64,000 nucleotides of DNA from positions 1 to 64,000 of the IMG/VR virus record IMGVR_UViG_3300036852_000134. One strand, 5' to 3'. The notes under the pieces were generated by a model. That model was not told the DNA's origin, searched no databases, and saw only the letters and a list, made by a program, of their open reading frames with translations. Source of the DNA: a virus. Positions 1,152-30,130 of this stretch are shown here, piece by piece (the first letter of the stretch is position 1; the number at the start of each line of letters is the position of its first letter). A program made the position numbers and the translations under genes.

Positions 1152-1205
1152 GTCGATTTTTGTCTCGTGTAGGCGGAGGTTTTGACGAAACGTCAAAAGC
1201 TGCGA

Positions 1206-5488: not shown

Positions 5489-8400
5489 TCATAGCCGCTC
5501 GTTCGTTTGTGGGGATGGGATGGCGGCGAGCACAGTCGCCGGCCTCGGCGCCTTCGCCCTAATGTGCGACCTGGGATCTGTCTTATGCGTCCCCGGCGTC
5601 GGGAAGGCGACCATGTCCAGCGTGGGGAATATGTGATCCTGATCTACGGTTGCGCCTTCGATGACGCGTGGCAGCGGATCGAGCGCACCGGTGTCGTCAC
5701 CCAAGAACAGGCCACGGGCATGCGTGTTGTAGAGCACCAGCGCCGTTTGCGCGACGCGCTTCATCTGAGCAAGGGCGGTGCCGGCCTGTGCGCCGTAGGC
5801 GAGCTTGCCGCTCCGCCAGTTTGCGTCAAAAGGCAAGCCTGCGACCGCGTGGTGGAGGCCGTCCGTCAGCCCGGTGAGCGTGATGTCGCCACCGGTGTCC
5901 GTCGTCCACAGCCTCTGCGAGAAGTCACTCCCCGTGTCCGGAGACATATCGACGTGCGGTGTAGATCCCGTGTCGAGACTTCCCCAAACGACGAGGCTCG
6001 TGCTCGGGAGGTGTGGGGCTATCGCGTGGAGGAAGGTGGTGCGCCCTGTATCCGTGAAGCTGACGCTGCAGTCAGCCAAGTAGTGAAGGCCGGTATCACC
6101 CTGGCACTCGCTCTCCTTGGCCCACTTCTCAAGGAAGCGCTTCGTGACTCCGTTGACGGTGCGCCTGACGTGGTAATAGACGGCGTCTTCATCGACGCCC
6201 GGTAGGCACATGACGCGCTCGACCGCACCTGAGCCTGAGGACCAGGTCGTCCAGCAGATCACCTCCTCGGCTGGCTCGTAGGTCAGGATCGCGACCTTGC
6301 CATCGGCAAGGGCCACATGAATTCTCGTGTCGGGCTGCCGCTGGACCGCAATCGATACGACGCCAGCCGCCAAGAGATCAGGCACCAGCACGGTCAGTTC
6401 AGATGAGCCATAGTCTCCGACTGCCGCTTGCGTGTCAGGCCCGACCATGAACACGCGCTTCCTCGATCGCTGGACGAAGATGCCCCTGCCGTCCACCTTG
6501 ATGGCGCGTAGGGGCGCCGTGCCCTGCGTAGAGAAGGTTGCGGCGCTGGAGTTGGTTGGGGTTAGCGGCTCGTCAAGGGACGAGGAGCGCAAGGTAAGCT
6601 CGGCGCCGGACGTGTGCACGATGAGGCGGAGCAGGGAGAGCAGCGTGTGGATACTATCGACCGGCCCTGATCCTAGCGTACGGATGATCGGGCCGGCATC
6701 TCCGGTTGTTGACTCATCGAAGCTTTGATAGTCATCGGCGACGGAGAGGAACAGGCTTCCGCCCTGAGCATGAGCCAGGCGCCCGCTGTGGAGCTGAACC
6801 GCCGTCGGGAACCCGCGTGCGTCGGACCAGTAGCCCTGTTGCCAGTTGTCGGAGGTGCCAGTGTCAGAGAAGCGGGAGAGCACCTCTATGCCAACTGAGG
6901 TGTTGGAGTTGTAGTCGGTGATGCGGGCGATGCCGGTCACACCTCCGCCACCGTAGGTGGCAGCGACGACTGCAACGCCAGAAGTGTATCCCCCTGCGCC
7001 TACTCCAGTATCCAGCGTGCTTCCCGTGTCAGCAACCCTGGCGCGATACCAAACTTTCAAGTTATCGTCTGTATCGGCTATGATCTTCGTAAAGGTCCCC
7101 GTATCACTGGCAGTCGTTCCAAACGATGGCGGAACCGGCTTGAACCCGATGTCCGGACCGTCGATAGAACGCTCTATCGTTATGCGTCCAGTCCACGTGC
7201 CGGACACTGAGAAAATGATGCGCCGTTCGTCATTCTCTGCCAGTGTCCCGGTATCCAAGATCCCAGTCATCGCGATCGGATCAGTGTAGGCGCCGGCCGC
7301 CCCAAGGCGCCACTGGCCGCTCTGTCCATCATGGAATGCGCGCACCAGCGCACCAACGTGCGTTGACTTGAAGAACGGAATATCAGAGTTGAGCGTCGTG
7401 TTGCCGAAGAAGTGGGAGACGGAGAGCTTGGCAGACGAGGACCGCGTTGGAAGGAATGGGCCATCATCCGGTGCGTAGTCCACCACGGACCAGGATCGCC
7501 CGGTTCCGCGACGCTCGATCATCTGCTGGCGCACGCCGTCGCAGTTGGCAAACACCACGTCCGCCGACTGGTCGTGGCGGATGTCGTCGAGGTTATCCGC
7601 TTCCCATGGCGTCGTGATCTCAACCGTGCCGCTGTCGCTGATCTCCAGCGAGGAGACGATGCGGTCGATGATGGCGTCCGACTGTAGCGTGATCCAGAAG
7701 TTGCCCTGAGGCGTGAAGGCAAGGTTGTGGTAGCCGGTGCCGATCGATGTCTCGGAGATGTAGTCGTCGTCGCCGTTGGTGGAACCGACACGCAAGGTGA
7801 CGGGGCCGCGTCCGACCTGGATGGCAAGCGCATGCTCCGTGCCCGTGTCGGAGACGATGACGCGCTTGGTGGCCTTGGCACGAGCGCCGATGGAGGTGGC
7901 GTTGAGGTACAACTGGCCGCTGGAGAACCGCGCCTGGTTGGCCGTCTGTGCATCGAACAGTTCGACCTCGGCAACGAACAATTCGTTGTCCCCAGCGGCT
8001 GTCGTGAAGAAGAACCGCCAATGCCGGCGCGCCGTTACAGTGCCAGTGTCGCCCTGATCCGTCGCGTAGGTGCGCCTTTCCGAAATGGCCCAGCCGGTCT
8101 GACTACTGCGCTCGTCTTCCAGCGTCCACTTTCCGGTGTCGGCGGCAAAGGTGCCGGTGTCAAAATTGCTCGCGATCAGGCGCCAGGCTGACGGGGCATT
8201 ATCCAAAAACCCAGACTGATCGGCCGCCCTGACCGAATACGATGTAACGGCCTTTCGATTCCCCGTGTCGCTCCCGAAATCGATGTTGAGCCACGACGGT
8301 AGAGTGCTGGCAGTGCCGCCCTCTTCGCTGGAGCCGCTAAGCCCCGTGTCGGCCCAAACGGACGAGGCGTCGTCGTCGGCTGCGCGCCAACCCTGCGCGT

Positions 8401-8890
8401 TGTTCTCAGCCTCTTCCGAGGAGGATGTGATCGTGACGCCGTTGGTCGTCGCCCCCGTCATGGTGGGTATGATGTCGTTGGGATCGCCGCTGACGACGGC
8501 CCCGCCCGTGCTGGCGTTTGTCCACCCCGTGTCGCTCAGGCTCACCGTCGTATCGACGGCCGGCCTGGACAGTAGGTCCAGATCGTGCGCGTCGTCGCCG
8601 AGCCAGATGCGCATGGCGCCACCAGCGCCGCCCGTGTCGTTGGCAAGCTCCAACAGCGCAACGTCATCCGTCGAGGCGATGAACTCTACCCAGTACGCGC
8701 CGGTGTCGCGGATTGAACTTCCCTTGTGCTTTGTGCCGGGGCGGATCGACATGCTTCCTTGTGTGGCGCAAATGAAATTGTTATAGACCTCGGCAGACAG
8801 CTTCACCCTGTCGAGATCGACGCGGGCGAGCGCCTTTGGGCTGATGAGACCGCGATTGAAAGCTACCAGACCCGCGTTGACACGGCTCAT
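5489..8890 (-). CDS. Tail tubular protein B / nozzle (T7 gp12-like), with an inserted discoidin-like domain and 20 DTG motifs
   Basis: N-terminal FNRGLISPKALARVDL...RPGT, later QSADVVF and GFPTAV..HSGRL segments typical of podovirus nozzles; synteny. Confidence 0.8.
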   Translation of the reverse strand: MSRVNAGLVAFNRGLISPKALARVDLDRVKLSAEVYNNFICATQGSMSIRPGTKHKGSSIRDTGAYWVEFIASTDDVALLELANDTGGAGGAMRIWLGDDAHDLDLLSRPAVDTTVSLSDTGWTNASTGGAVVSGDPNDIIPTMTGATTNGVTITSSSEEAENNAQGWRAADDDASSVWADTGLSGSSEEGGTASTLPSWLNIDFGSDTGNRKAVTSYSVRAADQSGFLDNAPSAWRLIASNFDTGTFAADTGKWTLEDERSSQTGWAISERRTYATDQGDTGTVTARRHWRFFFTTAAGDNELFVAEVELFDAQTANQARFSSGQLYLNATSIGARAKATKRVIVSDTGTEHALAIQVGRGPVTLRVGSTNGDDDYISETSIGTGYHNLAFTPQGNFWITLQSDAIIDRIVSSLEISDSGTVEITTPWEADNLDDIRHDQSADVVFANCDGVRQQMIERRGTGRSWSVVDYAPDDGPFLPTRSSSAKLSVSHFFGNTTLNSDIPFFKSTHVGALVRAFHDGQSGQWRLGAAGAYTDPIAMTGILDTGTLAENDERRIIFSVSGTWTGRITIERSIDGPDIGFKPVPPSFGTTASDTGTFTKIIADTDDNLKVWYRARVADTGSTLDTGVGAGGYTSGVAVVAATYGGGGVTGIARITDYNSNTSVGIEVLSRFSDTGTSDNWQQGYWSDARGFPTAVQLHSGRLAHAQGGSLFLSVADDYQSFDESTTGDAGPIIRTLGSGPVDSIHTLLSLLRLIVHTSGAELTLRSSSLDEPLTPTNSSAATFSTQGTAPLRAIKVDGRGIFVQRSRKRVFMVGPDTQAAVGDYGSSELTVLVPDLLAAGVVSIAVQRQPDTRIHVALADGKVAILTYEPAEEVICWTTWSSGSGAVERVMCLPGVDEDAVYYHVRRTVNGVTKRFLEKWAKESECQGDTGLHYLADCSVSFTDTGRTTFLHAIAPHLPSTSLVVWGSLDTGSTPHVDMSPDTGSDFSQRLWTTDTGGDITLTGLTDGLHHAVAGLPFDANWRSGKLAYGAQAGTALAQMKRVAQTALVLYNTHARGLFLGDDTGALDPLPRVIEGATVDQDHIFPTLDMVAFPTPGTHKTDPRSHIRAKAPRPATVLAAIPSPQTNERL

Positions 8891-8896
8891 CGTCTC

Positions 8897-9541
8897 TTAC
8901 CCCGTCAGCCTGCCGCGCGACCCGCGATCACGCCCAGCACTTCGCCCCCAACGCGCCTGCGTCCAACTGCCAGGAGGCGGGAACTTGGGCTGCGCTTCAT
9001 TCATCGCGTCGATGTTCTTCGCAACCTTGCGCGCCTGGTCCCGCTCCTCGCCGATCTCCCGCCTCAAGCCGGCATTCTGCGTGAGCGCCATGCAGACGCG
9101 ATGTGCTAACTCTAGCTCGACATACCTGGAGAAGTTTTCAGGCCACCGACTGAGATCGAGCCCAAGCCCAGTGTCATTGGAGACATAGCGCGCATAGATC
9201 GGCGTGTTGTCCGCCGACCAGAAGCTGTCATCGTCGTAGTATTGGGTCAGCGGGTAGGCGAAATATTCGTCGAGCGAGACGGCGATAGTGCGGACCCAGT
9301 CGGACGGCTTGGCGAAGACCTCGGTGAAGCCGAACGAAGGCGTCACACCAGTGTCGGCATCGAGCTGCACCGTCTCCATGGCGAAGTTCCAGGAGCCGGA
9401 GGCGACGCATGTCGCCACGACCTTGTCGTAGACAGCCGTAAGCTCACGAGCGGCCTTTACCGGGTCACCCGTGTCGGACAAGCGCTCGCTACCGAGATCC
9501 TGCAAGGCAGAATTCCACAGGGCGAGTTTTGTCGTGCCCAT
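8897..9541 (-). CDS. Tail tubular protein A / adaptor (T7 gp11-like)
   Basis: LWNSALQDLG, WNFA and KPSDWVR motifs; size and synteny; 3 DTG. Confidence 0.8.
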   Translation of the reverse strand: MGTTKLALWNSALQDLGSERLSDTGDPVKAARELTAVYDKVVATCVASGSWNFAMETVQLDADTGVTPSFGFTEVFAKPSDWVRTIAVSLDEYFAYPLTQYYDDDSFWSADNTPIYARYVSNDTGLGLDLSRWPENFSRYVELELAHRVCMALTQNAGLRREIGEERDQARKVAKNIDAMNEAQPKFPPPGSWTQARWGRSAGRDRGSRGRLTG

Positions 9542-9542
9542 C

Positions 9543-10028
9543 TCAGTCTTCCACCTTCACGGGGTCAACCCAGGCCTTGCCGGTATTGAGATCGATCGGC
9601 CGCGCCACGCCGGTCTTGATGTCGATGCTCGGGCCGATGCAGATCAGATCGAGGCCGCAGGGGTTCCCCAGATTGTTGCGCACGATGCCACGGATGCGGA
9701 GGACGGCGGAGAACGAGCCGCTCTCAGTCTCCAGGAAGATCTTGGAGCCGATCTTGTCCACCGTGGTGTTGAGAGGGTTGCGCGCAACCCTTGCAGCGAC
9801 GTTGGCCCAGGCGACCGGGTTCATCACGTCGGCAAACGTCCACTCTTTCGGAGCGGTGGCCGTGAGAATTTCAGTCTCCCCGTAACCCAGGGGCTGCAAG
9901 CTGCTGGGGGAGAACTGCTTCGGCTGAACCTTGCGCAATAGTTCCACGGCGGGTTTCACCGAGGGCGCAACAGTTTCAGCAGTCTTGGAAGACTTCGCGG
10001 ACTTGGTAGCCACGGCAGCATCAGACAT
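9543..10028 (-). CDS. Hypothetical late protein
   Basis: Likely start MSDAAVATK at 10028 after AAGGAAA; lies between the capsid terminator and tail tubular A. Confidence 0.6.
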   Translation of the reverse strand: MSDAAVATKSAKSSKTAETVAPSVKPAVELLRKVQPKQFSPSSLQPLGYGETEILTATAPKEWTFADVMNPVAWANVAARVARNPLNTTVDKIGSKIFLETESGSFSAVLRIRGIVRNNLGNPCGLDLICIGPSIDIKTGVARPIDLNTGKAWVDPVKVED

Positions 10029-10052
10029 ATTGGTTTCCTTGAGGTTGATATG

Positions 10053-10086
10053 AAAAAGGTGGGGCCGGCTTCGTGCCGGCCCCACC
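10053..10086 (-). terminator. Rho-independent terminator after the capsid/decoration genes
   Basis: 12-bp stem GGTGGGGCCGGC/GCCGGCCCCACC followed by TTTTT on the minus strand. Confidence 0.85.
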
Positions 10087-10096
10087 CCAGTTGAGA

Positions 10097-10408
10097 TCAC
10101 GACGTATCGCCGATAAGCACGCCGAGACCGACGGTGACCTGAGTCGCGCCGGTATCCTGCGCCTTCACGACGGTGAGGCCGTACTGCCGACGACCGCTCG
10201 TGTCGTTGGCGTTGTACGCGCCGGTATCGCCCTCGGTGAGGAACACGCGGTCACCCTTGCGCATGCCGCAGTCGTAGCCGGTGGTGAAGAAGCCCTCCAC
10301 CTCCTGCACGTCGGCAATCAGCACGCCCGTATCCCAGTAGTTGAAGGTACGCGGGCTGGCGATCGACTGGAACACGAGGGAGAGTCTGTCCTTATTGAAC
10401 GTAGCCAT
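10097..10408 (-). CDS. Putative capsid decoration/cement protein (3 DTG, 2 DTS)
   Basis: 103 aa, beta-rich, directly after the major capsid gene and before the terminator; GGAGGG RBS. Confidence 0.6.
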   Translation of the reverse strand: MATFNKDRLSLVFQSIASPRTFNYWDTGVLIADVQEVEGFFTTGYDCGMRKGDRVFLTEGDTGAYNANDTSGRRQYGLTVVKAQDTGATQVTVGLGVLIGDTS

Positions 10409-10421
10409 GGTTCACCCTCCC

Positions 10422-11255
10422 TTAGATGCCAGACGCATCATGCAGGAACTGCACGATACCGTTCTGCTGCAGCAACCGCGCGCCGGTGAACGACGAAGCG
10501 CGAGCATACGAATAGTCCTGCTCGTCGTCGTAGCCGATGGCGGTGTTGAGCCCCTCGCCGTTGTCGAAGGCACTTCCGATCGCATCGCGATGGTAGAAGT
10601 AGCACTTCTCCGAAGCGGTCCCGACGCCGGTCAGGTTAGGATGTTCAATCCAATTGAACCCAGCCCAACGCATGGTCCGACGGTTAGGACCCGTGAGGTA
10701 CTTCATATCGACGTAGTCGATCTTGGTAGCCTCAGGGAGCTGCATGATGTAGCCCATCACCGCGGGGGTAACGACGGCCCACATCTTGTCGATCTCAGAG
10801 GTTGGGACCTCGTTCTCACCCAGCGTTACTCTTGCCTTCGCAACCACGGCCAGAGAGAACGTGGTGGCACCTCCCAGGGCGTTAGTCGCCGTGTCGAGCT
10901 GAGCGATGATGTCAGCGTCAAGCCGGCGGTTCAGGACCTTCTTCGTCGTCTCCTGCATGAGACGGCGCTGATCGCCCTGAGACTGGAAGATGTTGAACCT
11001 AGTCTTGCGGACCAGGTCGTGCCACTCAACGAGCGTCGCGGTGGTCTGGGTCATATCGTCGGCGCGAGCCGGGATAAGACCGTTGATGCCGCGGGTCACA
11101 GCGGTAGCACCGCCGGAACCTGCGACGAGGAACGTGGCCTGGTTGCCCTTGATCACGGACTCAGTGACCGTGGTCTGGCGGAGCCAGGACATGCCTTCCT
11201 CAAAGGCCGCAACGAGCTCGTTGCGGTATTGAATCTGTGGTGCAGATTCAGCCAT
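10422..11255 (-). CDS. Major capsid protein
   Basis: Follows the scaffold gene; strong AGGAG RBS; sequence resembles alphaproteobacterial podophage capsids (QYRNELVAAFE, NRRLDADII, YFYHRDAIG). Confidence 0.85.
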   Translation of the reverse strand: MAESAPQIQYRNELVAAFEEGMSWLRQTTVTESVIKGNQATFLVAGSGGATAVTRGINGLIPARADDMTQTTATLVEWHDLVRKTRFNIFQSQGDQRRLMQETTKKVLNRRLDADIIAQLDTATNALGGATTFSLAVVAKARVTLGENEVPTSEIDKMWAVVTPAVMGYIMQLPEATKIDYVDMKYLTGPNRRTMRWAGFNWIEHPNLTGVGTASEKCYFYHRDAIGSAFDNGEGLNTAIGYDDEQDYSYARASSFTGARLLQQNGIVQFLHDASGI

Positions 11256-11258
11256 GTT

Positions 11259-11460
11259 GGCATCTCCTATTGAGATTGGGGATGCCGGTCGTTCAGGTTC
11301 TCCTTTTCCGATCGGTCACGGGTTGGCCTGCTACGGGAGCAAGCGCCGCTTCCGCATCCAAAGGCGCATCACGAACGGTGGGGTGCGGACGGATGTCCGC
11401 GGTTAGGTGGCCGTCTCTCCGGCGCCGGATTGCTCCGGGTTGGCCGGGTCTGACGACCGG
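11259..11460 (-). promoter_or_regulatory. Structured 5' leader of the capsid gene
   Basis: Closing stem 11450-11460/11285-11296, GCAA tetraloop hairpin 11425-11438, hairpin 11385-11400, RBS-covering hairpin 11259-11286. Confidence 0.55.
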
Positions 11461-11463
11461 GCA

Positions 11464-12525
11464 TCAAGCCCGTTGCCGGGCCTGAATCTTCTCGCGTGCC
11501 GCCAGCAGCTCGCCGTAGCGGTTCGCGTAGTCTCTGTCGTACCGACGACGGTCGGTACGCATGATGCCTTCGATCTCTTTGATCTCGTCGTCGATGCCCT
11601 TGCCACCGCGACTGGCGCCATCCTCGACAACCGTTGCTGCCGGGTTGATTTCACGCGCAAGGTTAGAAAAGAGCCGCACCATATTCGGGTCGTCGCCAAT
11701 CACCTTGCCATCAGAGGTGCGGCCTCCCATCAAGCGCGCATAATCTGACTTTGGGTTCTTGGGATCAGCTCCGCCAGAAGCCGTAGCAAACAGGCTTCCA
11801 ATGACGTTGGTGTGGCGTCTGAACGCCGCCCCCCATTCCTCCTTCAGCGCCGCCTCGGACTCGCGGCGGAAGGCCTCGTCGGCCTCGTCGATCTCCGCAG
11901 CCAACTGCTCCTGGCGCTGGTAGTACCAGTTGACAGTTGCGTTGACGGCCGCCGGCGGAGCGCCTGCCTTGTGCAGAGCCTCGGTGAAGCTGGTGAGCAT
12001 CGGCTTGTCGGCTTCGCCGATCACAGCGCCGCTCTCAAGCTTGATGTGCTCCATGTAGCCTTCGGGCTTCTCGGGCACGCCGAGGGCGGCATGGAAGGCC
12101 TTGACCTCCTCGGGCTTGGCGTCCTTCGCCGGAACCTTGACGAGTCCGCCACCGGTGAACCTGCCTTCAAGCTCACGATACATGCCGTAGACGCCGGCAG
12201 GATCGGTGATGCGCTGAAGGCGGGCGAGCTCCTTCTTGTATGCCTTCTTGTCGCCGGCGGAGGCGTGCTCGGCCCACTTCTCGCGCCAGTCGGCGGGCCA
12301 GTCGGTCTTAGCCGGCTTGGCCTCTTCCCCCTTGGCCTTGTCGTCAGTCTCGCTGTCGGCACCGGTGGCTATGGTCTTGCCAGCGGCGGGCTTGCCTTCT
12401 GCCGGCTTGCCCTCGGGTGATGCCACGGGCGGGGCTTGCGCTGCGGCTTTACCTTCGGTGGCTTCCGCACCCTCGGTATCAACCTCGGCCTCGGCATTCA
12501 GGTCGTCTGCTTCATCAGCGATCAT
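11464..12525 (-). CDS. Capsid scaffolding/assembly protein
   Basis: Acidic low-complexity N-terminus, LGVPEKPEGY and LKEEWG motifs, between portal and capsid. Confidence 0.75.
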   Translation of the reverse strand: MIADEADDLNAEAEVDTEGAEATEGKAAAQAPPVASPEGKPAEGKPAAGKTIATGADSETDDKAKGEEAKPAKTDWPADWREKWAEHASAGDKKAYKKELARLQRITDPAGVYGMYRELEGRFTGGGLVKVPAKDAKPEEVKAFHAALGVPEKPEGYMEHIKLESGAVIGEADKPMLTSFTEALHKAGAPPAAVNATVNWYYQRQEQLAAEIDEADEAFRRESEAALKEEWGAAFRRHTNVIGSLFATASGGADPKNPKSDYARLMGGRTSDGKVIGDDPNMVRLFSNLAREINPAATVVEDGASRGGKGIDDEIKEIEGIMRTDRRRYDRDYANRYGELLAAREKIQARQRA

Positions 12526-12549
12526 AGGGTCCTCTTGTTGACGGGCAAC

Positions 12550-12574
12550 AAAAAAGGCGGTCTGAAACCGCCTT
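12550..12574 (-). terminator. Rho-independent terminator
   Basis: AAGGCGGT-TTCAG-ACCGCC followed by T6 on the minus strand. Confidence 0.65.
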
Positions 12575-12600
12575 GCGTGGTATGATCCGGGGAAAGCGGA

Positions 12601-12933
12601 TTACTCGCTCGGGAACATCTCCGGCTTCAGCTCCATGAGCTTCTTGATCTCTTTCGCCACAGAGCGCCGGCCATCGATCAAAGCGGCGACGCGGCCATGC
12701 GGGTCGTTACCTGCGGCCAAGCTCGCCATGGTTCCGTTCTCATGATCTTGGCACGCATAGAATATGATCCAATCGAGTGCCCTCTTCACGTCATGGGGCG
12801 TAGGAACCGGTGGCTCATCGCCTGGAGGCCACGGTTGCACGGCGCCTCTCGCGTAGCGCTCCAGCGTTTGAATGGCTCGGATATCGGCCTTCGTGTAAGG
12901 TGGTGAGTGCCAGATTTCGGGTCGCTTTGCCAT
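12601..12933 (-). CDS. Small conserved protein between portal and scaffold (Bbp19-like)
   Basis: RALDWII and LIDGRRSVA motifs; synteny. Confidence 0.55.
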   Translation of the reverse strand: MAKRPEIWHSPPYTKADIRAIQTLERYARGAVQPWPPGDEPPVPTPHDVKRALDWIIFYACQDHENGTMASLAAGNDPHGRVAALIDGRRSVAKEIKKLMELKPEMFPSE

Positions 12934-12934
12934 T

Positions 12935-14662
12935 CTACCTCACGGGGGCCAGTCCAGCCGGGCGACGACGCGGCGCTGCCGCAGGCGCCGGCATAGCCTC
13001 AGGCGGCTGCATCATCGCACTAGCCCCCTGCGCCAGCGCACCGAGGCCCTTGCCGCTCTGCTCTGCAAGCTGGCCCGCTGTCCCGATGTCCTGCACCGTC
13101 TGCTGCGCCATCGCCTCTTCTTCCATCTGTGCCCGGCGCTCGCCCACTGCTTCCTTCGGCTTGAACCACTTCGCCTTGAAGCCCAAGGCACGGGCGGCAT
13201 CGCGTGTCGCTGTCGGCCAGTCGACGATCTCAGCAAGGGACGGATCGACCTCCATGGCCGGAGCGAAGATGCGGTCACGCACGTCGAGGAAGATCTCCGC
13301 TTCGTTCTGCTCTGCCAGGTCGTCGAGCGGAGACCGGAACTTGAACTTGATGTCCTTGTCCGCCAGCGACTCCGGCATCTGGTCACGCGGGAAGGCGTTG
13401 TTCTCCATCATCAGCTGGAACACGCCGTCGCAGAGCGGGTAGTTGTACTCCTGCTGAATGGGCTTGGAGATCGGCGCCGCGGCTCGGATGTGCTCCTGCA
13501 CACGGCGGCGCACCTCGGTGGCGGTCATCGCCCGCGTCGTCTCGGGAAGCTGGATCTTGTCCAGCATGAAGCCCTGGCGGATGTCCTCCTTCAGCGCCTC
13601 GACGATCTCCCTGCCGATGGGATAGCCGCTCTTGTCGCGGGTGATGGGGCGGAGCACGTCGGCAAGCTTGCCGTCGTACTCGATGTCGGAGGTGGTAACG
13701 CCACCCGGATACATGGCGATGTCGCCGCGGATGGCATCCATGAAGGCCAGCATCGGCGGGTTGACGTGCATCTCGCCGGCCTCCCTCAACGTGCGCATCA
13801 CGACCTGGATGGTACGCCCGTCGGGGAGAAGCACATCCGTCGCCATTGACACGCCGAAAACAGAGCCACTGACGCGCTGCCAGCGCGGGACGACGTAGGG
13901 GAAATGGCTTAGACCGACCTCCTCCAGAACCGTTTCTGACTCAACCTCGATGTAGAGCGAGACGAATGGAAATCGCTTGCCACCCTTGGTCTTGTATTCG
14001 TAGAGCCGCGACGGCATCACCACATGCAGGCAATCGAATTCCTTGTGTGGGTCTTTGTTGGGGCCGTCGCTGCAGGCCTTCTTAACGTTCTCGGATATCG
14101 TCTTTGGGAAGGTATCCATCAGCTGCCGTGCTGTGGGCTTCCATTTGCGGTAGAGGCAATCGATCTTCCTTGCAGAGTTCTCCGCCCAAACGCAGTCGCG
14201 CAAATGGTGGTTCAGGAAGAGGAGGGCGTCGCCAGTCTGATTGAGACCAAACCACAATACGCCGTTGCCGAAAGTGACGAGGTCGTTATCGACTTGGTTC
14301 GTTGCTGTCACGAGCTGAGCAATAGGGTCGCTCATCGCCCGCCACTGGGTCGTGGTCAAGTGCTCAAGGTAAGCCCGCTCATTGTCAGCCTCGTCGAGTT
14401 CCTCGTCGTCAACGTGAATGGAGAAGAACTTGTCGGGACGGAGGAACTCAGCCATCATGTTTGACAGTTCACGCCTAGCGATGACCGGGTACGACGAGAA
14501 CAGGTGGTCGGAGTACTCGTCCCCGTCATCGCGCGTAGTCGTAAAGGTTGCGCTCTTGGGATAGAAGTTGAGGGCTAGCTCCTGCCAGAGCGAGTCCACC
14601 GTCCTCTTGTCGCTGAATAGCTTGCTGCCGAGCCTGATGACAGAGCGTGCCCTGGAGTCCAT
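12935..14662 (-). CDS. Portal protein (head-tail connector, T7 gp8-like)
   Basis: LWQELA, DLVTFGNG, PYVVPRW, MTATEV and FRSPL motifs. Confidence 0.92.
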   Translation of the reverse strand: MDSRARSVIRLGSKLFSDKRTVDSLWQELALNFYPKSATFTTTRDDGDEYSDHLFSSYPVIARRELSNMMAEFLRPDKFFSIHVDDEELDEADNERAYLEHLTTTQWRAMSDPIAQLVTATNQVDNDLVTFGNGVLWFGLNQTGDALLFLNHHLRDCVWAENSARKIDCLYRKWKPTARQLMDTFPKTISENVKKACSDGPNKDPHKEFDCLHVVMPSRLYEYKTKGGKRFPFVSLYIEVESETVLEEVGLSHFPYVVPRWQRVSGSVFGVSMATDVLLPDGRTIQVVMRTLREAGEMHVNPPMLAFMDAIRGDIAMYPGGVTTSDIEYDGKLADVLRPITRDKSGYPIGREIVEALKEDIRQGFMLDKIQLPETTRAMTATEVRRRVQEHIRAAAPISKPIQQEYNYPLCDGVFQLMMENNAFPRDQMPESLADKDIKFKFRSPLDDLAEQNEAEIFLDVRDRIFAPAMEVDPSLAEIVDWPTATRDAARALGFKAKWFKPKEAVGERRAQMEEEAMAQQTVQDIGTAGQLAEQSGKGLGALAQGASAMMQPPEAMPAPAAAPRRRPAGLAPVR

Positions 14663-14665
14663 CTC

Positions 14666-14866
14666 TTACGCTCCGAGCTTCTGACCACTGGAGCCGGTTG
14701 TCTCCCGCGTCTGGTCGGTCATGATGGTGGAGAGGCGGCCGGATCGGCGAAGGGCGTTCTCGCGCGCACGCAAGCCGGCGGCCCGGACCTCGGGGTCCAT
14801 CTCTGTCGGCATGCGCACGGGTTTCGGCGCCGGCGGAAGCTTCGGGCCGCTGAACAAAGAAGCCAT
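14666..14866 (-). CDS. Small virion protein upstream of portal (T7 gp7.3-like position)
   Basis: MASLFSGPKLPPAP...GRLSTIMT...KLG; start at 14866 after AGGAAG. Confidence 0.6.
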   Translation of the reverse strand: MASLFSGPKLPPAPKPVRMPTEMDPEVRAAGLRARENALRRSGRLSTIMTDQTRETTGSSGQKLGA

Positions 14867-14871
14867 GTCAG

Positions 14872-16446
14872 TCACTTCCTTCGTGGCTGGTAGTGGGTCT
14901 TGGCCTTCGCGTAGGCCATGAGAACCTTGGGCGGGGAGCGGCGGATAGCTGCTCGCTTGACGGCATGATCCCCAGGCGCCAAGCACATGACGACAGCCTC
15001 ACCTCTGTCCGGCGAGCGCCCGATGCGCTTCTTGATGTCTTCCTTGGACTCGATCTGAATGCCGTTCGGCTTGAGCATCCAGCGGAAGGAGGCGAGGTCG
15101 GCCTTCAACTCAGGGTCAGGCGGCAGCGCGACGACCGAGCCGCCTTCCTGACCTGGGTCGAGAGCCTCGCGGAACTTCCAGATCGTCTCGGCGCGCTTGT
15201 TGACGAAGCGCAGCTTACCGTCGCGCGTCGTACCGCTGGACGGATCGAGCCCCATGTAGGTGACGACGGCAATGCCGTTGTCCTTGAGGGCAATCGCAGC
15301 GTCGCCGCCCCATCCACCCCCCATATCCACGACCACGGGGCAGTTGTCGCGTCGCAGCTTCACCACCGCTGCGGCTGTCAGGCGGCCGTCCTTGTCTTCC
15401 TCACGAGCCACATCGAGCGGAGGAAACCAACCACCGTATCTGGCGGCGATGACGCGCTTGTCGCCGCCGCCTGGTGCCACGTCCACCGCCATGGATGTCA
15501 TGGCGTAGCCATCTGGAGCACGAGTGGTCCAACGCTGTTGCGCAGCGTCAATCCACGCGGTCGGGATGCACTGCCAGTCGTCGTCTCTGAGGCCCACAGT
15601 GAAGTCGCCACCGCGGTAAACGCGCCGCAACTCTTCCGGCAAGCTTTCGAGACGATCGCCGTAGTTCGTGTCGGCTAGGTCTGGATTGTCCTCCAGCCTG
15701 GAGCGGATGAAGGTGCGCGACGACGCTCGCACCATCTTGCCGCGCACTTCATGAGGACCGGGGCCGTTGAATTCTACATCCTGATCATCGACCCTGATGT
15801 ACCAGCGCAACTCCCCGTCCTTGGCCGGGTTTGGGTGTTTCGGATCCAGCCAGGCTGCCCAGCGTCGCGTGATCCAGAGGCCCTCAGCCGTCGTTGGGCC
15901 GTTGGTTGCACCCACGACCCTGCAACGCTGCTTCGGATCGACAGAGCGGTTCCAGGTGTTGATGAAGACGTACTGGCTTTCGAGGAAGTCGGCGAGCTCG
16001 TCATAGCCGATGAAGTCCCGCGCCTTGCCTTTGTATCTCTGCTTGTCCCGCTCCAGTTCGCAGCCGCGGAACTCGATCATCTGACCGTCTGGTCCGCGCC
16101 AAGTTGCCGGATTGCGCGTAAAGCCGCTGTCATCATCTAGGATTTCAAGGAGACGATCGCCGAGTTCTGTGGCATCCTGATTTATGCGACGCAGGATGCG
16201 GGAGCGCTTGTGCTCGTTGTGTGCAAGACCTATCAGCAGATCCGACTTGCCGCCCCCAGCCTCGCCGCCGAACAGCAGCTCGTCCGCCTCGCAGTAGTAA
16301 GCCTTGGTTTGCGGGCCAGGGTTCGGCAGCCACTTGGGTTGTGCCAACTCTCTGGCGGCCTGCGCCCTGAGCTTAGAGATATCCTCGGGTGGCAGATGGC
16401 TTATGACACGGGCAAGAAGATCGTCGAGAACATTGCCGGACGACAT
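14872..16446 (-). CDS. terL: Terminase large subunit
   Basis: Walker A GGEAGGGKS, Walker B FIGYDE, coupling motif ATNG, nuclease residues AVDVA and RSPDRGEA. Confidence 0.93.
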   Translation of the reverse strand: MSSGNVLDDLLARVISHLPPEDISKLRAQAARELAQPKWLPNPGPQTKAYYCEADELLFGGEAGGGKSDLLIGLAHNEHKRSRILRRINQDATELGDRLLEILDDDSGFTRNPATWRGPDGQMIEFRGCELERDKQRYKGKARDFIGYDELADFLESQYVFINTWNRSVDPKQRCRVVGATNGPTTAEGLWITRRWAAWLDPKHPNPAKDGELRWYIRVDDQDVEFNGPGPHEVRGKMVRASSRTFIRSRLEDNPDLADTNYGDRLESLPEELRRVYRGGDFTVGLRDDDWQCIPTAWIDAAQQRWTTRAPDGYAMTSMAVDVAPGGGDKRVIAARYGGWFPPLDVAREEDKDGRLTAAAVVKLRRDNCPVVVDMGGGWGGDAAIALKDNGIAVVTYMGLDPSSGTTRDGKLRFVNKRAETIWKFREALDPGQEGGSVVALPPDPELKADLASFRWMLKPNGIQIESKEDIKKRIGRSPDRGEAVVMCLAPGDHAVKRAAIRRSPPKVLMAYAKAKTHYQPRRK

Positions 16447-17027
16447 TAGTGCGGCTCAGCGTGACCGTTCGCCATAGCGCCGCGGTGCAGCTTCAGCGCT
16501 AGCCAACGGGCGAAGTCGCGGTCGGACATCTCGCGGGTTTCGATCGGGCCGCCGTCCTTGCCGGCAACCTCGTGCTTGTCGATGAACATGCCGAGATGCT
16601 TACCGAGCTTCTCCAAGGCATTCAGCTTGTCGTGAAGCTTGACGCGGATAGTGCCGCCCTTCTCGGTGACCGTCTGGCTCACCTCGGCGACGACAGAGCG
16701 CTGCTCAGGAGTGAGATCGGATTTGCTCTTGACGGTTACGCCGTCCGGTCCCCAGTCGAAGAAATCACCGGCATCGGCGAAGGCGATCTTGACGTACTCG
16801 CCTACGATGCGATCGACGGTGATCTCGTGGCGCTTTTGATGAGCGGCCTGGAGATCGGCGATCCTTAGGACAACCTTAGGATGTTTGAGCGTCTTGCTCG
16901 CCTGAACCGCGAGTGCGTTATCGCTGAAGTTCTTGGCGCTGTACGCACGCCTATAGGCCTCACTTGCGTTGCCGGTCTCGATGTAGGCTTTGGCGAACGC
17001 CTCCTGCTTAATGGTGAGCTTCGTCAT
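16446..17027 (-). CDS. terS: Terminase small subunit
   Basis: LTIKQEAFAKAYIETGNASEAYRRAY and KLHDKLNALEKLGKHLGMF; likely start 17027. Confidence 0.9.
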   Translation of the reverse strand: MTKLTIKQEAFAKAYIETGNASEAYRRAYSAKNFSDNALAVQASKTLKHPKVVLRIADLQAAHQKRHEITVDRIVGEYVKIAFADAGDFFDWGPDGVTVKSKSDLTPEQRSVVAEVSQTVTEKGGTIRVKLHDKLNALEKLGKHLGMFIDKHEVAGKDGGPIETREMSDRDFARWLALKLHRGAMANGHAEPH

Positions 17028-17028
17028 A

Positions 17029-17217: not shown

Positions 17218-17250
17218 TGTGGAGTTCCTTAGGTAGAAGGTTGTCTGTGA

Positions 17251-17388: not shown

Positions 17389-17397
17389 TTACTCAGG

Positions 17398-17784: not shown

Positions 17785-18054
17785 TTAATGACCCCGCCTC
17801 GCAATGCCTTTTCCATGTAGATATAACATGAAGGCAGAGAGTATTTCGTCTCTCTCGTCTTGCGATTTGTCCCACCACTCTTCTAACCACTGCTCCCAAT
17901 CGCCTTTGTGTATTCCCCTGTCTGGGCCTGGCGGTCCGAATGTCCGGACCGCCTTTTGGTGGATTGCGAGAGCCACCAGGACCTCCCCCATAATCTCTTC
18001 TAAGGGGGCCCACCCTCTTGTCATCTCTTCAAGAACGTCTTTGGCGTTTGTCAC
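17785..18054 (-). CDS. Hypothetical protein
   Basis: GTG start overlaps the upstream stop (GTGA at 18051-18054). Confidence 0.5.
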   Translation of the reverse strand: MTNAKDVLEEMTRGWAPLEEIMGEVLVALAIHQKAVRTFGPPGPDRGIHKGDWEQWLEEWWDKSQDERDEILSAFMLYLHGKGIARRGH

Positions 18055-18515
18055 AGGTGTGACCAATCCTGACGCAACCGCTCCAAGTCCTCTCCCGCCA
18101 TCCCCTGGTCTATGAACCACTGCTCACTCCACGGGGGGGCCCACACGTGCCTCTCGTGCCTGACCACCGGCACCTCCTTGATCTCCAGTGCCAGAGCGCA
18201 GGCGACGCGGTGAGCTCCACCTAGAAGCTCACCGTTGGGGTCTACCGGGATGCGCCACTCTGGGATGTCGACGAAGCCTCTGTGGGCCATGGAGGCACAG
18301 ATGGCGGCGGCAGTCTCGATGTAGTGGTCCGTTCCGCTCTTGCCGTCCATACCGAGGTTGAGCTTGGCGTTGGAGGCCTTACGCGCTTCAAGATGCCACC
18401 GGTAGACGCGGACGGCGTCGGGATCATTGCCGGCCAACAGATGCCGGAACAGGCGCCATTTCACCGCTAAGTCGAAACGGCGTGCGGTCACCAATGATGA
18501 TGGCCGCACCCGCAT
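18051..18515 (-). CDS. ParB/Srx-like domain protein
   Basis: IPVDPNGELLGGAHRVACALAL..VPV resembles the ParB DGxHR motif; TGATG-coupled start. Confidence 0.55.
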   Translation of the reverse strand: MRVRPSSLVTARRFDLAVKWRLFRHLLAGNDPDAVRVYRWHLEARKASNAKLNLGMDGKSGTDHYIETAAAICASMAHRGFVDIPEWRIPVDPNGELLGGAHRVACALALEIKEVPVVRHERHVWAPPWSEQWFIDQGMAGEDLERLRQDWSHL

Positions 18516-18898
18516 CACTTCTTGTAGGCAGAGCTGCGTTGCCATGTCGGCAGAAGCGCCTTGAAGTCTGCCGCCTCATCAACAGCAGGAACCCAACCGA
18601 AGCTCTTCACCCTATCGGTCGCACCGCGCCTGAGCAGAAGTGTGCTGCCGGTGGGGCGATGAAGGGCGAACATCGGAGTACGCCCAGGAGGAACAGAGAC
18701 GCCGAACCCGCCCATGGGGTATGTTCTGATTGCGAGCCCTTCAGGCAAACTCCAGAGGCGACCATCAGGTCCGTGGATGGCGATCTCGTCCAAGTCCCAC
18801 TGCCTGAACGGCATGAGCGAGGACGCGCGCACAATCGCAGGTGATGCAATCAGACTTGCAGCACTGATGAGAAAGCGGCGGCGTCCTAATTCAAGCAT
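18515..18898 (-). CDS. Hypothetical protein with twin-arginine-like N-terminus
   Basis: GRRRFLISAASLIASPAIVRA. Confidence 0.55.
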   Translation of the reverse strand: MLELGRRRFLISAASLIASPAIVRASSLMPFRQWDLDEIAIHGPDGRLWSLPEGLAIRTYPMGGFGVSVPPGRTPMFALHRPTGSTLLLRRGATDRVKSFGWVPAVDEAADFKALLPTWQRSSAYKK

Positions 18899-18907
18899 TG
18901 CGCACCT

Positions 18908-19579
18908 TCACTGCCACCACGGGGGCGGAGATAGAATTTCGGTGCGGCAATCTATGCTTGTTCGCGCGGGCTCACAAGGCGGACGGTTGGCAAACGCGAG
19001 GAGCTGGGCTCTGGCGTCTTCAATTGGCTGGGTTGTATCGATCTCGATGACCGGAACACCTCGCTCATTCAGGACTTTCTTGGCAATTTCAATGGCAGGC
19101 ATCATCAAGCCCACCATCCTTGACCTGTCCTCGAACCTGGTCTCGCGCACCAGCCGGCGGGCTGCGTTGCGCTCCTCAACGATGTGCTGCGGGCACTTGG
19201 TGAAGGCCACACCGATAGACACCGGCATCAGCTCGAAGTAGTGGCGGAGCTCGTTGAGGTCCTTGCCCATGTCGTTCAGGCGCCAGCCGAAGCCTAGGCC
19301 GCGCTGGACGAGGCCGGTCTGGATGTAGGGGCTTTGGCCTTCCATCCGGGCTACGGTGGCCATCTTGCGCACCGAGCGGTTGACCATGCGCAGGGCGGCG
19401 CCGAATGTGGCGTGCGGCTTGATGAGGTGGAAGAGGCGCGTGCACTCGTTGCAGAAGTCGAGCCAAGAGGCCGGGGGTAGGCGGTTCTCAATGGTGATGG
19501 CGTGCGGGCCGTAGAGCGGGTCGCAGAGTGTTGACTTGCCACTCCCCGGCGGGCCGGCGCAGTCCAGCCAAGCGGTCAC
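18908..19579 (-). CDS. P-loop kinase (NMP/small-molecule kinase-like)
   Basis: N-terminal Walker A GPPGSGKST; lid-like ERNAARR; C-terminal IEIDTTQPI. Confidence 0.7.
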   Translation of the reverse strand: MTAWLDCAGPPGSGKSTLCDPLYGPHAITIENRLPPASWLDFCNECTRLFHLIKPHATFGAALRMVNRSVRKMATVARMEGQSPYIQTGLVQRGLGFGWRLNDMGKDLNELRHYFELMPVSIGVAFTKCPQHIVEERNAARRLVRETRFEDRSRMVGLMMPAIEIAKKVLNERGVPVIEIDTTQPIEDARAQLLAFANRPPCEPARTSIDCRTEILSPPPWWQ

Positions 19580-29464: not shown

Positions 29465-29736
29465 CAGAACGTCACTCTCTTGGTGATGATCGTTGCATCT
29501 GTCAGCGACACTTCATCGCCTTCGAGCAGCAGGTGTCCGTCTTCATCGCCCTCAAGCAGGAGCGCATCGGCGCCTCCGGTCTGCATGTCGCCTTCGAGCA
29601 GTAGAAATGAGATTCCAGATATGCCTGTCGTCTCAGCGATACGCTTGGTTTGTCCGCCAGCTGGCGTTCCCTGCACGCGCGCGGTCTGTCCACCGGATGC
29701 TGCACCTGATACCCGCTTGGTGGTGGTCGTGGCCAC
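29464..29736 (-). CDS. Small repeat-rich tail-associated protein
   Basis: LLLEGD x3 and T(K/A)R(V/I) x4; probable GTG start at 29736; coupled to the tailspike start. Confidence 0.55.
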   Translation of the reverse strand: MATTTTKRVSGAASGGQTARVQGTPAGGQTKRIAETTGISGISFLLLEGDMQTGGADALLLEGDEDGHLLLEGDEVSLTDATIITKRVTF

Positions 29737-29737
29737 G

Positions 29738-30130
29738 TCAGCTCTTGATCCAGATGTAAAGTCTTCCACCGGTGAGCACGACGCCGGTATCGGCTGGCGC
29801 CACCCTGATCTTCAGGCGATCGCCAGCGAGAACCACGGGCACATAGCCCGTATCCGAAGCGTTCCCCGCGCCAGTAACGAAGCTCACGGCCTGCCGCGTT
29901 GCGCGCACGAACTGCGTGGCTAAGTTTGCCGCCGCTGCGTCATAGATCAGCCAGCCCACCCCCGTATCGAGCGTGTCAGGCAGCACGGAGACCTGGAGCG
30001 TGGCAACCTGGCCGGTGTCGGTGGAATGCCACCAGCGCAGCTGCTGGATTTCGCCCATCATATGCGGGCCAGTATCCTGGAAGGTGACACCTCCAGAGAC
30101 GTTCACGTCGAAACGCTGACGGGTGATCAT
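29738..30130 (-). CDS. Putative virion accessory protein (5 DTG in 130 aa)
   Basis: Beta-rich, LAGDRLKIRV motif, late operon. Confidence 0.6.
   Translation of the reverse strand: MITRQRFDVNVSGGVTFQDTGPHMMGEIQQLRWWHSTDTGQVATLQVSVLPDTLDTGVGWLIYDAAAANLATQFVRATRQAVSFVTGAGNASDTGYVPVVLAGDRLKIRVAPADTGVVLTGGRLYIWIKS

Follow-up and report, generated by a model that had tools for sequence, protein, structure and literature searches.

An Asp-Thr-Gly tripeptide enriched in the outer virion proteins of a phage clade as a probable attachment signal for a phage-made sugar coat

The tripeptide Asp-Thr-Gly (DTG) is present in about 20-fold excess on the tail, neck and fibre-type proteins of the uncultured phage whose DNA is analysed here (the window, a stretch of 64,000 nucleotides) and of the whole clade to which it belongs (clade A), where its enrichment is a selected feature at the amino-acid level. 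In the light of this strong enrichment and of its constant inheritance with a cassette of sugar-transferase-like genes, DTG probably serves as a signal, not described before, for the attachment of a sugar coat that the phage makes itself. The best reading, given a probability of about one half, is that virion proteins are O-glycosylated at a D-(T>S)-G sequon.

The tripeptide in the late proteins of the window

Five late proteins of the window (1,868 aa) contain 37 in-frame DTG against 1.82 expected (log10P -34), and are listed here with the untagged tailspike:

5489..8890, minus strand: nozzle (tail tubular protein B-like), 1133 aa; 20 DTG, 1.01 expected; phrog_376, E 3e-114
8897..9541, minus strand: adaptor (tail tubular protein A-like), 214 aa; 3 DTG, 0.09 expected; phrog_394, E 2e-35
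10097..10408, minus strand: 103-aa protein encoded between the capsid and neck genes; 3 DTG and 2 DTS, 0.14 DTG expected
24382..25248, minus strand: 288-aa tagged protein with a predicted ConA-like lectin/glucanase fold; 6 DTG, 0.47 expected
29738..30130, minus strand: 130-aa tagged protein, upstream of the tailspike; 5 DTG, 0.10 expected
26441..29464, minus strand: tailspike, 1007 aa, pectate-lyase-like beta-helix (PF12708, E 3.6e-13); 0 DTG

When residues were shuffled within the proteins (20,000 rounds), DTG reached a maximum of 9 against the real 37, and each of the remaining orderings of these three residues is seen 0-7 times in the tagged set. The major capsid, portal, terminase, scaffold and ejection proteins and the tailspike contain no DTG in 4,356 aa, where 1.9 would be expected; the tailspike (0 against 0.72) serves as an internal negative control. 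The recount reproduces exactly the per-protein numbers of the original prediction, as well as the absence that it had claimed for the capsid, portal, ejection proteins and tailspike, and its labels of nozzle and adaptor are backed by phrog_376, phrog_394 and the tail tubular protein B of named phages. The sole PHROG match of the 103-aa protein is phrog_18004, a family of unknown function, and the 130-aa protein has no match in Pfam or PHROG.

Within the five tagged ORFs, 37 of the 38 matches to the DNA pattern GAYACNGG are in frame, and the 37 copies are encoded by 19 different 9-mers, whereas every alternative reading frame of the whole 82.9-kb genome yields just 3-5 DTG. Even at the invariant nozzle sites, 5-9 different 9-mers per site are used among 9 relatives. 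Such free codon variation places the signal at the level of the protein. When all tripeptides were scanned without bias, the enrichment of DTG exceeded that of any other by a wide margin in three clade genomes (log10P -10.5, -14.3 and -17.9), with nothing comparable in relatives outside the clade. No extended consensus was found in the flanks of the sites, which show only a mild preference for S at -1 and for T at +1/+2. Thus, the earlier description of a tripeptide enriched in the protein, with differing codons and unrelated flanks, and not of a DNA repeat, is upheld.

Conservation within the clade and absence outside it

Clade A consists of about 25 related contigs with GC contents of 51-68%, and the tag is present in every one that covers the tagged genes. 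About 12 nozzle sites are invariant or nearly so in 13 relatives, while the remaining ones turn over; the adaptor keeps 2-3 DTG in 17 clade-A proteins, with sites 63 and 123 invariant. Homologues of the 103-aa protein carry 2-4 DTG and those of the 130-aa protein 4-5 (6 in contig G003), and each of the 120 database homologues of the 288-aa protein carries 4-10; the last two proteins are restricted to clade A. In the 288-aa family conservation is 0.90 at DTG columns and 0.55 at the other columns; in the nozzle it is 0.82 at DTG columns and 0.66 in their flanks. Many sites appear in the alignments as invariant islands amid diverging flanks. Among relatives, the non-conserved sites arise and disappear at differing loops.

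At conserved columns the commonest replacement is DSG (8 cases), against at most one each for DAG, DLG, DTS and DTA. In the 120 homologues of the 288-aa protein DTG occurs 821 times (39 expected) and DSG 114 times (26 expected), whereas the near misses are depleted (observed against expected: DAG, 2 and 40; DVG, 1 and 34; ETG, 0 and 11; NTG, 3 and 20; DTS, 1 and 17). Exchange of Thr for Ser is the sole tolerated substitution, and the hydroxyl group the feature that is kept.

The outgroup set comprises about 45 genomes and loci with homologous adaptor and nozzle genes, among them four clade-B genomes, all complete, and some 20 prophage-like loci from MAGs of Alphaproteobacteria. No DTG excess was found in the homologous adaptors and nozzles of this set: those of clade B and of the Alphaproteobacteria MAGs have 0-1 DTG, and the adaptors have none in 23 of 25 cases and one in the other 2. 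At the DTG-aligned sites these proteins hold unrelated residues or gaps, and in clade-B nozzles residues ~145-325 are missing. The adaptor and nozzle folds thus do not require DTG. The four-gene block of glycosyltransferase (GT), methyltransferase (MTase), P-loop protein and p164, described below, is missing from these outgroups, in line with the expectation that nozzle homologues of phages lacking the GT cluster would not be enriched. Untagged proteins show a similar deficit of DTG in both clades (clade A, 7 observed and 18.3 expected; clade B, 10 and 19.3), so that an 'avoidance' of the tripeptide is not specific to clade A.

The AF2 model of the 288-aa protein (pLDDT 86.7) is all-beta, and its Foldseek matches (7eo3, E 3.9e-8, plus legume lectins) indicate a ConA-like sandwich. 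The 6 DTG of the model all fall in inter-strand loops or termini, as do almost all of the DTG columns in the homologues. The predicted surface-loop location is thereby supported in the one modelled protein, as a placement in secondary structure.

The enzyme cassette in the late operon

The candidate modifying enzymes are encoded within the late operon:

18051..18545, minus strand: 164-aa conserved protein (p164) with a GxHRxAC motif in the family alignment
18908..19579, minus strand: P-loop NTPase, NMP-kinase-like; invariant Walker A GPPGxGKS, weak AAA_33, UMP-CMP kinase E 0.03
20007..20678, minus strand: class I SAM-dependent methyltransferase; PF13649, E 3.4e-7, and PF08241
20682..21494, minus strand: HNH homing endonuclease inserted within the cassette; phrog_374, E 5e-67
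21470..22189, minus strand: GT-A-like glycosyltransferase, 239 aa; phrog_1962 glycosyltransferase, E 2e-11; LDLD (DxD)
22617..23714, minus strand: FAD-dependent oxidoreductase (DAO family); PF01266, E 3.8e-16
23681..24382, minus strand: 233-aa protein with a CstII-type (GT42-like) transferase fold in the predicted structure (pLDDT 89.5)

The 239-aa protein shares with GT8 and other retaining GT-A enzymes, such as glycogenin, an invariant DxD (D100 and D102) and weak profile matches (glycogenin, E 0.6), and among named Atlas clusters GT8 and Nucleotid_trans lie nearest to it; however, no match exceeds a curated threshold, and its family of 604 database members is unnamed and nearly all viral. 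At least one such gene, in 1-3 paralogues, is found in every clade-A contig, and all five longer relatives have it. Since two contigs (G005 and L058) possess solely a paralogue 33-34% identical to the GT of the window, no conserved DTG-reading GT is evident.

The start ATG of the 233-aa gene overlaps the stop of the 288-aa gene. Its product has no Pfam match, and its model matches 1ro8 (E 3.8e-4, probability 1.0) and aligns with CstII, Cst-I and P. multocida sialyltransferases over 150-162 residues (Z 9.0-9.6, 14-18% identity), which points to a CstII-type sialyltransferase fold. Its glycine-rich loop reads G-S-x-P-(S/T), of which the CstII counterpart is presumably G-N-G-P-S. The fold is common to CstII/Cst-I (GT42) and to the MptE-like/Maf flagellin nonulosonic-acid transferases, but the protein belongs to neither at the sequence level; its 1,934 database relatives are all unnamed, and every one of the DTG-free clade-B genomes has the gene, which is also widespread in other DTG-free relatives.

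The SAM methyltransferase is found in all clade-A contigs covering its region, and the P-loop gene invariably adjoins those of the methyltransferase and of p164. The latter is present in every copy of the block; no PDB match was found for it, and a ParB/Srx-like resemblance (Atlas ParB_N at 0.87) is a lead only. The FAD oxidoreductase is optional, being missing from three clade-A contigs (G001, L042 and L045). The HNH endonuclease, which differs in position or is absent among relatives, is mobile and stands outside the function of the cassette.

The original prediction had made these enzymes the modifiers of DTG. Two transferase-type proteins are indeed present, but their link with the motif is inferred from one evolutionary co-occurrence: tag and block share a single origin and count phylogenetically as one data point.

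Weighing the alternatives

All of clade A has both tag and block, as foreseen, but the expected co-occurrence fails in a group of siphoviruses (G006-G010). These carry the same four-gene block between capsid and head-completion genes, with a GT 40-48% identical, and their cassette also has an MptE/sialyltransferase-like gene (PF01973, E 8e-6; phrog_4603), yet over as much as 40 kb no excess of DTG or any other tripeptide was found. Hence possession of the block does not by itself bring the tag.

The siphoviruses would fit an enzyme-free role of DTG in structure or assembly, as a hydrogen-bonded or metal-binding turn or as a site where a virion protein specific to the clade docks (for instance the 130-aa protein or the ConA-like 288-aa one); the tripeptide would then have spread among the clade's outer proteins, the cassette doing something else. 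D-(T/S)-G with Thr/Ser tolerance also suits a hydrogen-bonded turn, as in the DTG/DSG loops of aspartic proteases, and all modelled sites lie at loops and turns. Furthermore, the genes whose presence matches the tag perfectly are those of the 288-aa and 130-aa proteins, and no enzyme; in fibre-like relatives DTG heads each unit of true sequence repeats of three kinds, and unrelated phage fibres (L221 and L226) have DTG-containing repeats with no cassette in the surrounding 14 kb. Such a role is nevertheless unlikely: the same adaptor and nozzle folds are built without DTG in the outgroups, sites come and go while the number per protein is kept, the flanks have nothing in common and the tag is found on at least five unrelated folds. 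No structural motif is known to us that a single protein uses 20 times in unrelated contexts.

With a lower probability still, DTG may be a sequon whose adduct is not a glycan or not on Thr (phosphorylation, a phospho-linked methylated group or modification of Asp), a phospho-type adduct being installed by the P-loop protein, p164 and the methyltransferase. The genes of these three always lie side by side and make up the core of the block, conserved more tightly than the rest, and Asp is as invariant as Thr; methylation of a mycobacteriophage tail protein is reported to be needed for infectivity (PMC13445384). On the other hand, the likeness of the P-loop protein is to nucleotide kinases and not to protein kinases, the GT-A-like gene of every clade-A contig suggests sugar addition and the caveat of the DTG-free siphoviruses applies equally.

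Least probable is a cassette targeting phage DNA or a host surface polymer, with the tag read by a host enzyme or by nothing. In its favour, sets of kinase, flavin oxidoreductase, methyltransferase and GT are likewise found in the DNA-hypermodification clusters of phages; an integrase and ERF mark the phage as temperate, so that the cassette genes could act on the host; and the siphoviruses keep the cassette without DTG. Against it, the late structural operon houses the block in two unrelated morphotypes (podovirus clade A and the siphoviruses), and the block travels with the structural module, the early genes not being conserved. Furthermore, no nucleotide-hydroxymethylase was matched by Pfam among the ten largest early-region ORFs, the GC span of the clade makes a single host enzyme an unlikely reader and periplasmic host oligosaccharyltransferases cannot reach virions assembled in the cytoplasm.

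Relation to known systems

A close precedent is that of mycobacteriophages, whose virions are reportedly glycosylated by phage-encoded glycosyltransferases (a finding echoed in PMC11256854), with the chemistry proven. Both systems have soluble phage GT genes inside the structural operon and, presumably, virion proteins made in the cytoplasm as targets. In mycobacteriophages, however, the modification is on subunits of the capsid and tail tube and follows no defined short sequon, whereas here the capsid lacks DTG, a strict tripeptide tags nozzle, adaptor, fibre-like and small accessory proteins, the enzyme families are unrelated and the system is known from sequence.

Bacteroidota are said to have a general O-glycosylation at D-(S/T)-(A/I/L/V/M/T), a signal that, like DTG, has three residues with Asp directly before the hydroxyl residue and occurs on many unrelated proteins. 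To our knowledge its third (+1) residue is aliphatic or Thr, never Gly, and the glycan is understood to come from a lipid carrier and to be transferred in the periplasm, outside the cytoplasm. The phage motif, by contrast, requires its Gly (DTA, DTS and DTN are depleted) and stands on cytoplasmic targets, and the phage system showed no oligosaccharyltransferase, so that the Bacteroidota sequon offers an analogy only.

A proposed route to a sugar coat

The proposal that DTG is the acceptor for a coat is strengthened by its clade-wide selection, its absence from outgroups, its loop location and the Thr to Ser exchange, and weakened by the siphovirus counterexample and by the indirect link between enzymes and motif. 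In this proposal the cassette would act on proteins, reading DTG as its signal and modifying Thr; the choice of initiating enzyme and the nature of the adduct, which we likewise infer, are part of it. Late in infection, soluble phage enzymes of the same late operon would act in the cytoplasm on D-(T>S)-G, a short acceptor signal on loops of outer virion proteins (tail, neck and fibre-type). A modified sugar would be transferred to the Thr/Ser hydroxyl by the CstII-fold transferase together with one to three GT-A-like enzymes, while the SAM methyltransferase, the P-loop kinase-like protein, p164 and sometimes the flavin oxidoreductase would serve in tailoring or in making the donor. The outer virion proteins of this clade would in this way probably acquire a sugar coat of the phage's own making.

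Distribution of DTG in the late proteins

The tripeptide Asp-Thr-Gly (DTG) occurs 37 times in five late proteins encoded between positions 5489 and 30130 of the window, namely the nozzle, the adaptor and the proteins of 103, 288 and 130 residues (1,868 residues altogether), where 1.82 occurrences are expected (log10P -34); the highest count in 20,000 shuffles was nine, and the numbers given for the individual proteins in the original prediction were, without exception, exact on recount. The capsid, portal, terminase, scaffold, tailspike and ejection proteins hold none in 4,356 residues. The remaining five orders of the same three residues are found 0-7 times each; of 54 x-T-G tripeptides 37 begin with Asp and, in the five tagged proteins, 37 of the 47 D-T-x tripeptides end in Gly; no extended consensus surrounds the motif. 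A repeat or binding site at the DNA level is ruled out by the fact that the signal is confined to the reading frame (37/38 GAYACNGG matches inside the tagged ORFs, as 19 different 9-mers), with varying wobble positions, while every other reading frame of the genome contains 3-5 DTG, i.e. background. DTG shares with the sequons of protein O-glycosylation its shortness, the obligatory hydroxyl residue and an enrichment, beyond what composition predicts, on a defined set of proteins. The receptor-binding tailspike (window 26441-29464, minus strand), a pectate-lyase-like beta-helix, lacks DTG despite being rich in D, T and G.

Conservation and tolerated substitutions

All 13 IMG/VR relatives retrieved with the nozzle (50-79% identity) encode a DTG-rich nozzle (16-20 copies when full-length), adaptor (2-3) and small protein (2-4), and searches with the cassette genes added further members of this tagged group, termed here clade A (capsid 72-87% identical, GC content 51-68%). 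DTG stood far above any other tripeptide in an unbiased scan of all tripeptides in three clade-A genomes, and the major capsid ORF was absent among the DTG-rich ORFs listed for the relatives. Their fibre-like proteins hold 29-35 copies, partly the result of duplications; where fibre-like proteins take the place of the window's tailspike, they are tagged 9-35 times.

About a dozen of the nozzle sites are (nearly) invariant, while the rest turn over, and across nine relatives the invariant ones are encoded by 5-9 different 9-mers. DTG columns form islands of conservation in the 288-aa family (0.90 versus 0.55, alignment of 73 sequences), and those of the nozzle reach 0.82 versus 0.66 in their flanks. 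Each of 120 database homologues of the 288-aa protein contains 4-10 DTG, and 120 homologues of the cassette glycosyltransferase (GT) have none. The excess is real, extreme and a clade character under selection. A clade-A-specific avoidance of DTG in the untagged proteins was considered and rejected: 7 are found where 18.3 are expected, yet the DTG-free sister group, clade B, is alike (10 versus 19.3), so that the depletion is general.

Among 30 mostly conserved DTG columns of five families, DSG is the commonest replacement (8 cases), with DAG, DLG, DTS and DTA found once each. The homologues of the 288-aa protein give a similar picture.

Table. Tripeptides in 120 homologues of the 288-aa protein; the sequences are related, and the counts are not independent.
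DTG: observed 821, expected 39
DSG: observed 114, expected 26
DAG: observed 2, expected 40
DVG: observed 1, expected 34
ETG: observed 0, expected 11
NTG: observed 3, expected 20
DTA: observed 8, expected 27
DTS: observed 1, expected 17

DTN is likewise depleted in this set. The pattern is clearly D-(T>S)-G, and the hydroxyl is the feature that is retained.

Outgroups and location of the sites

Three sets of outgroups with homologous terminase, portal, capsid, adaptor and nozzle genes were compared: four complete clade-B genomes (about 49% identity in the capsid, 35-39% in the nozzle), roughly a dozen additional clade-B loci, and some 20 prophage-like loci in metagenome-assembled genomes (MAGs) of Alphaproteobacteria (capsid 50-63%), several of them within contigs of 0.2-3.5 Mb. 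No ORF with a DTG excess was found in any of these sets. The outgroup adaptors contain no DTG in 23 of 25 cases and a single one in the other two, the nozzles 0-1, and the residues aligned to the invariant DTGs of clade A are unrelated residues, D-x-x variants or gaps. Judged from these alignments, the adaptor and nozzle folds do not need DTG. Three of the capsid relatives (L135, L155 and L158), all DTG-free, are integrated in large alphaproteobacterial MAG contigs. No prophage with the 288-aa protein was found in reference genomes, and, apart from a single clade-A fragment of 3 kb in the bin of a Burkholderiales MAG, the capsid-based scan returned only DTG-free outgroups.

Of the 20 sites in the nozzle, about nine are in insertions specific to clade A, among them a domain of about 180 residues. 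This domain (window 7900-8480, residues ~134-331) is absent in clade B, carries six of the 20 DTGs and, on visual inspection of the sequence, resembles a discoidin/F5-8 type C carbohydrate-binding domain; its only matches are to the PHROG tail-protein families 17517 and 38477.

The 288-aa protein is predicted to be a ConA-like lectin/glucanase sandwich (AF2 model from 73 sequences, pLDDT 86.7, pTM 0.88), the model matching 7eo3 (E 3.9e-8), legume lectins, GH16 glucanases and the esterase of phage phi24B. The original prediction expected DTG in surface loops; in this model, according to DSSP, all six copies are at strand ends, in hairpin loops or in the C-terminal tail, and the extra DTG columns of the homologues are in loops as well. 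Loop positions of this kind suit a structural turn no less than they suit a sequon. That DTG is a structural or docking motif independent of any enzyme is considered unlikely. If it were one, its selection 20 times in one protein, in unrelated loops, would itself call for an explanation.

Genome organization and the enzyme cassette

The source record (IMG/VR, 82,864 bp, direct terminal repeats, rated complete) has the window as its first 64 kb. The late genes are on the minus strand in the order 130-aa protein, tailspike, 288-aa protein, enzyme cassette, terminase, portal, scaffold, capsid, 103-aa protein, adaptor, nozzle and ejection proteins. Adaptor and nozzle match phrog_394 (E 2e-35) and phrog_376 (E 3e-114), respectively, and are of the T7 type by homology to tail tubular proteins A and B and by gene order after the capsid gene. 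No named phage relative was found at the DNA level, and at the protein level named phages show only a distant similarity to the C-terminal half of the nozzle (in tblastn, 25-30% identity with tail tubular protein B of podophages, those of Pelagibacter among them). At the ends of the record, an open-ended 398-aa ORF (window 3-1196, minus strand) and a 4,325-aa ORF (genome 69888-82862, same strand) both match one 3,447-aa ORF of the related genome G001 (36% and 28% identity) and probably make up a single giant protein (virion or ejection, about 4,700 residues) that spans the record ends; it contains only one DTG. The phage is probably temperate, as it encodes an integrase, a recombinase and a DNA methylase. 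These genes and an endonuclease gene within the cassette are:

51283-52122, plus strand, ERF recombinase
55161-56216, plus strand, tyrosine integrase
36659-37660, minus strand, N6/N4 DNA methylase
20682-21494, minus strand, HNH homing endonuclease carrying an HTH at its C-terminus, encoded between the GT and the methyltransferase

In clade A the gene order is always 288-aa protein, 233-aa protein, an optional FAD oxidoreductase, one to three GT-A-like genes, SAM methyltransferase, P-loop protein, a 164-aa protein (p164) and terminase; in the window the cassette occupies positions 18051-24382. The HNH gene is irrelevant to the function of the cassette; since relatives have copies elsewhere or none, it is a mobile insertion. 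Terminator and promoter sites between 16000 and 31500 are no more numerous than in shuffled sequence, and the case for co-transcription of the region therefore comes only from the shared strand and the tight or overlapping gene spacing.

The GT (239 residues) matches PHROG glycosyltransferase family 1962 (E 2e-11) and contains the DxD motif of GT-A/GT8 enzymes as LDLD, with D100 and D102 invariant in nine sequences. It gave no match in Pfam and NCBIfam searches and a weak one to the glycogenin profile (E 0.6); its nearest named Atlas clusters are GT8/Nucleotid_trans, with a lead of 0.94 to a cluster in which GT8 is carried by 21% of the members. The 233-aa protein, listed as 262 residues, starts at the ATG at 24382, which overlaps the stop of the 288-aa gene. 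Its AF2 model (pLDDT 89.5) is predicted to share the GT42 (CstII-like) fold over most of the domain: Foldseek finds 1ro8 (E 3.8e-4, probability 1.0, TM only 0.40), the best VIA-align row has Z 9.6 and an rmsd of 3.4 over 153 residues, and the first nine rows are taken up entirely by CstII, Cst-I and Pasteurella multocida sialyltransferases (Z 9.0-9.6, 150-162 residues). It has no sequence match in Pfam or the PDB. The methyltransferase and the DAO-family oxidoreductase score above the Pfam thresholds; in the P-loop protein the Walker A motif is invariant and the likeness to NMP kinases weak, and a ParB/Srx-like motif in p164 is only a lead. Pfam, NCBIfam and PDB searches assigned no significant family to the GT, the 233-aa protein, p164 or the P-loop protein, and database searches for homologues returned unnamed proteins only.

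Does the tag follow the cassette?

The expectation that DTG enrichment co-occurs with the GT cluster holds for clade A as compared with its outgroups, all clade-A contigs that cover both regions having tag and cassette, and the outgroups (about 45) lacking both the tag and the block formed by the GT, methyltransferase, P-loop and p164 genes. The block is inherited with the structural genes, the early genes differing completely. Against a link between tag and cassette, the co-occurrence represents a single evolutionary event. Also against it is a siphovirus group (G006-G010), in which the same four-gene block lies between the capsid and head-completion genes (GT 40-48% identical), adjoined by an MptE/sialyltransferase-like gene, and neither a DTG excess nor any other enriched tripeptide is found in up to 40 kb. 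A different sequon in this group or in clade B was sought by the all-tripeptide scan, and none emerged. Furthermore, the CstII-fold gene (1,934 database relatives) is present in every DTG-free clade-B genome, two clade-A contigs have as their sole GT a paralogue 33-34% identical to that of the window, and the genes whose presence matches that of the tag perfectly are those of the tagged 288-aa and 130-aa proteins themselves. The cassette is, therefore, demonstrably not sufficient for the tag, and plausibly necessary.

The siphovirus cassette of G006 (locus L069, 5573-9855, between capsid and head-completion genes) comprises the MptE/sialyltransferase-like gene (phrog_4603, E 3e-38), a second methyltransferase-like ORF, GT, methyltransferase, P-loop protein and p164, with a possible, weakly matching further GT (DUF6716/Capsule_synth). 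It is probably a virion-modification system without a recognisable sequon. An hhalign comparison of the 233-aa family with the siphovirus MptE-like protein was not significant.

An independent second lineage was sought by scanning IMG/VR for closely spaced DTG codons; most of what this returned was collagen-like GDTGxxG proteins, tandem repeats or spurious frames, and no match was usable as a replicate. Collagen-like G-X-Y proteins with 20-70 GDTG triplets occur in many unrelated phages (e.g. loci L164, L200, L206, L196 and L227), including a 276-kb contig, and represent a phenomenon distinct from the tag. The scan also returned, from unrelated phages, two fibre-like proteins (L221 1915-4230 and L226 3261-4094) that contain repeats of about 17 residues, each starting with DTG (DTG-x-G-x-D...), which resemble the DTG-headed modules of the clade-A fibres; the surrounding DNA examined contains no cassette genes, and DTG can, thus, belong to fibre repeats elsewhere.

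Interpretation and comparison with known systems

The most economical reading, to which we assign a probability of about 0.5, is that D-(T/S)-G is the acceptor signal for O-glycosylation of outer virion proteins by a phage-encoded, cytoplasmic multi-enzyme system. Clade-A phages would place a strict three-residue address on loops of tail, neck and fibre proteins; soluble phage-encoded enzymes in the cytoplasm would read it and build a tailored glycan there, and the particle would gain a programmable sugar coat, the density of which would evolve through gain and loss of tripeptides. That DTG would be the first viral sequon, with its own cytoplasmic enzymes and such a coat on the particle, is a possibility we rate slightly below even. 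A DTG-directed modification other than a glycan seems improbable, and that the cassette acts on something else is a little more improbable still.

The O-glycosylation sequon of Bacteroidota is D-(S/T)-(A/I/L/V/M/T), with an aliphatic residue or Thr in third position. The clade-A tag differs in having Gly there, with DTA, DTS and DTN depleted. To our knowledge, virion glycosylation by phage enzymes is known only from a few mycobacteriophages, with no defined address. As in those phages, GT genes are found among the structural genes: those of the GT-A-like and the CstII-fold protein are on the late strand between the tailspike and 288-aa genes and the terminase gene. Unlike in mycobacteriophages, where the target is the major capsid or tail-tube subunit, the capsid of the present phage has no DTG and, since the phage is a podovirus, there is no tail tube. 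Literature searches for a sequon in phages, or for DTG as a motif, returned nothing relevant.

The glycosylation hypothesis is directly testable, given the small natural substrates (103 and 130 residues, with 3-5 sites each) encoded beside the candidate enzymes. If true, a compact tag-plus-enzyme system would become available for cytoplasmic glycoengineering; a portable three-residue O-glycosylation tag with soluble enzymes would explain how the phage chooses which proteins to coat, with implications for receptor shielding and adhesion, and for the stability and immune recognition of phages.
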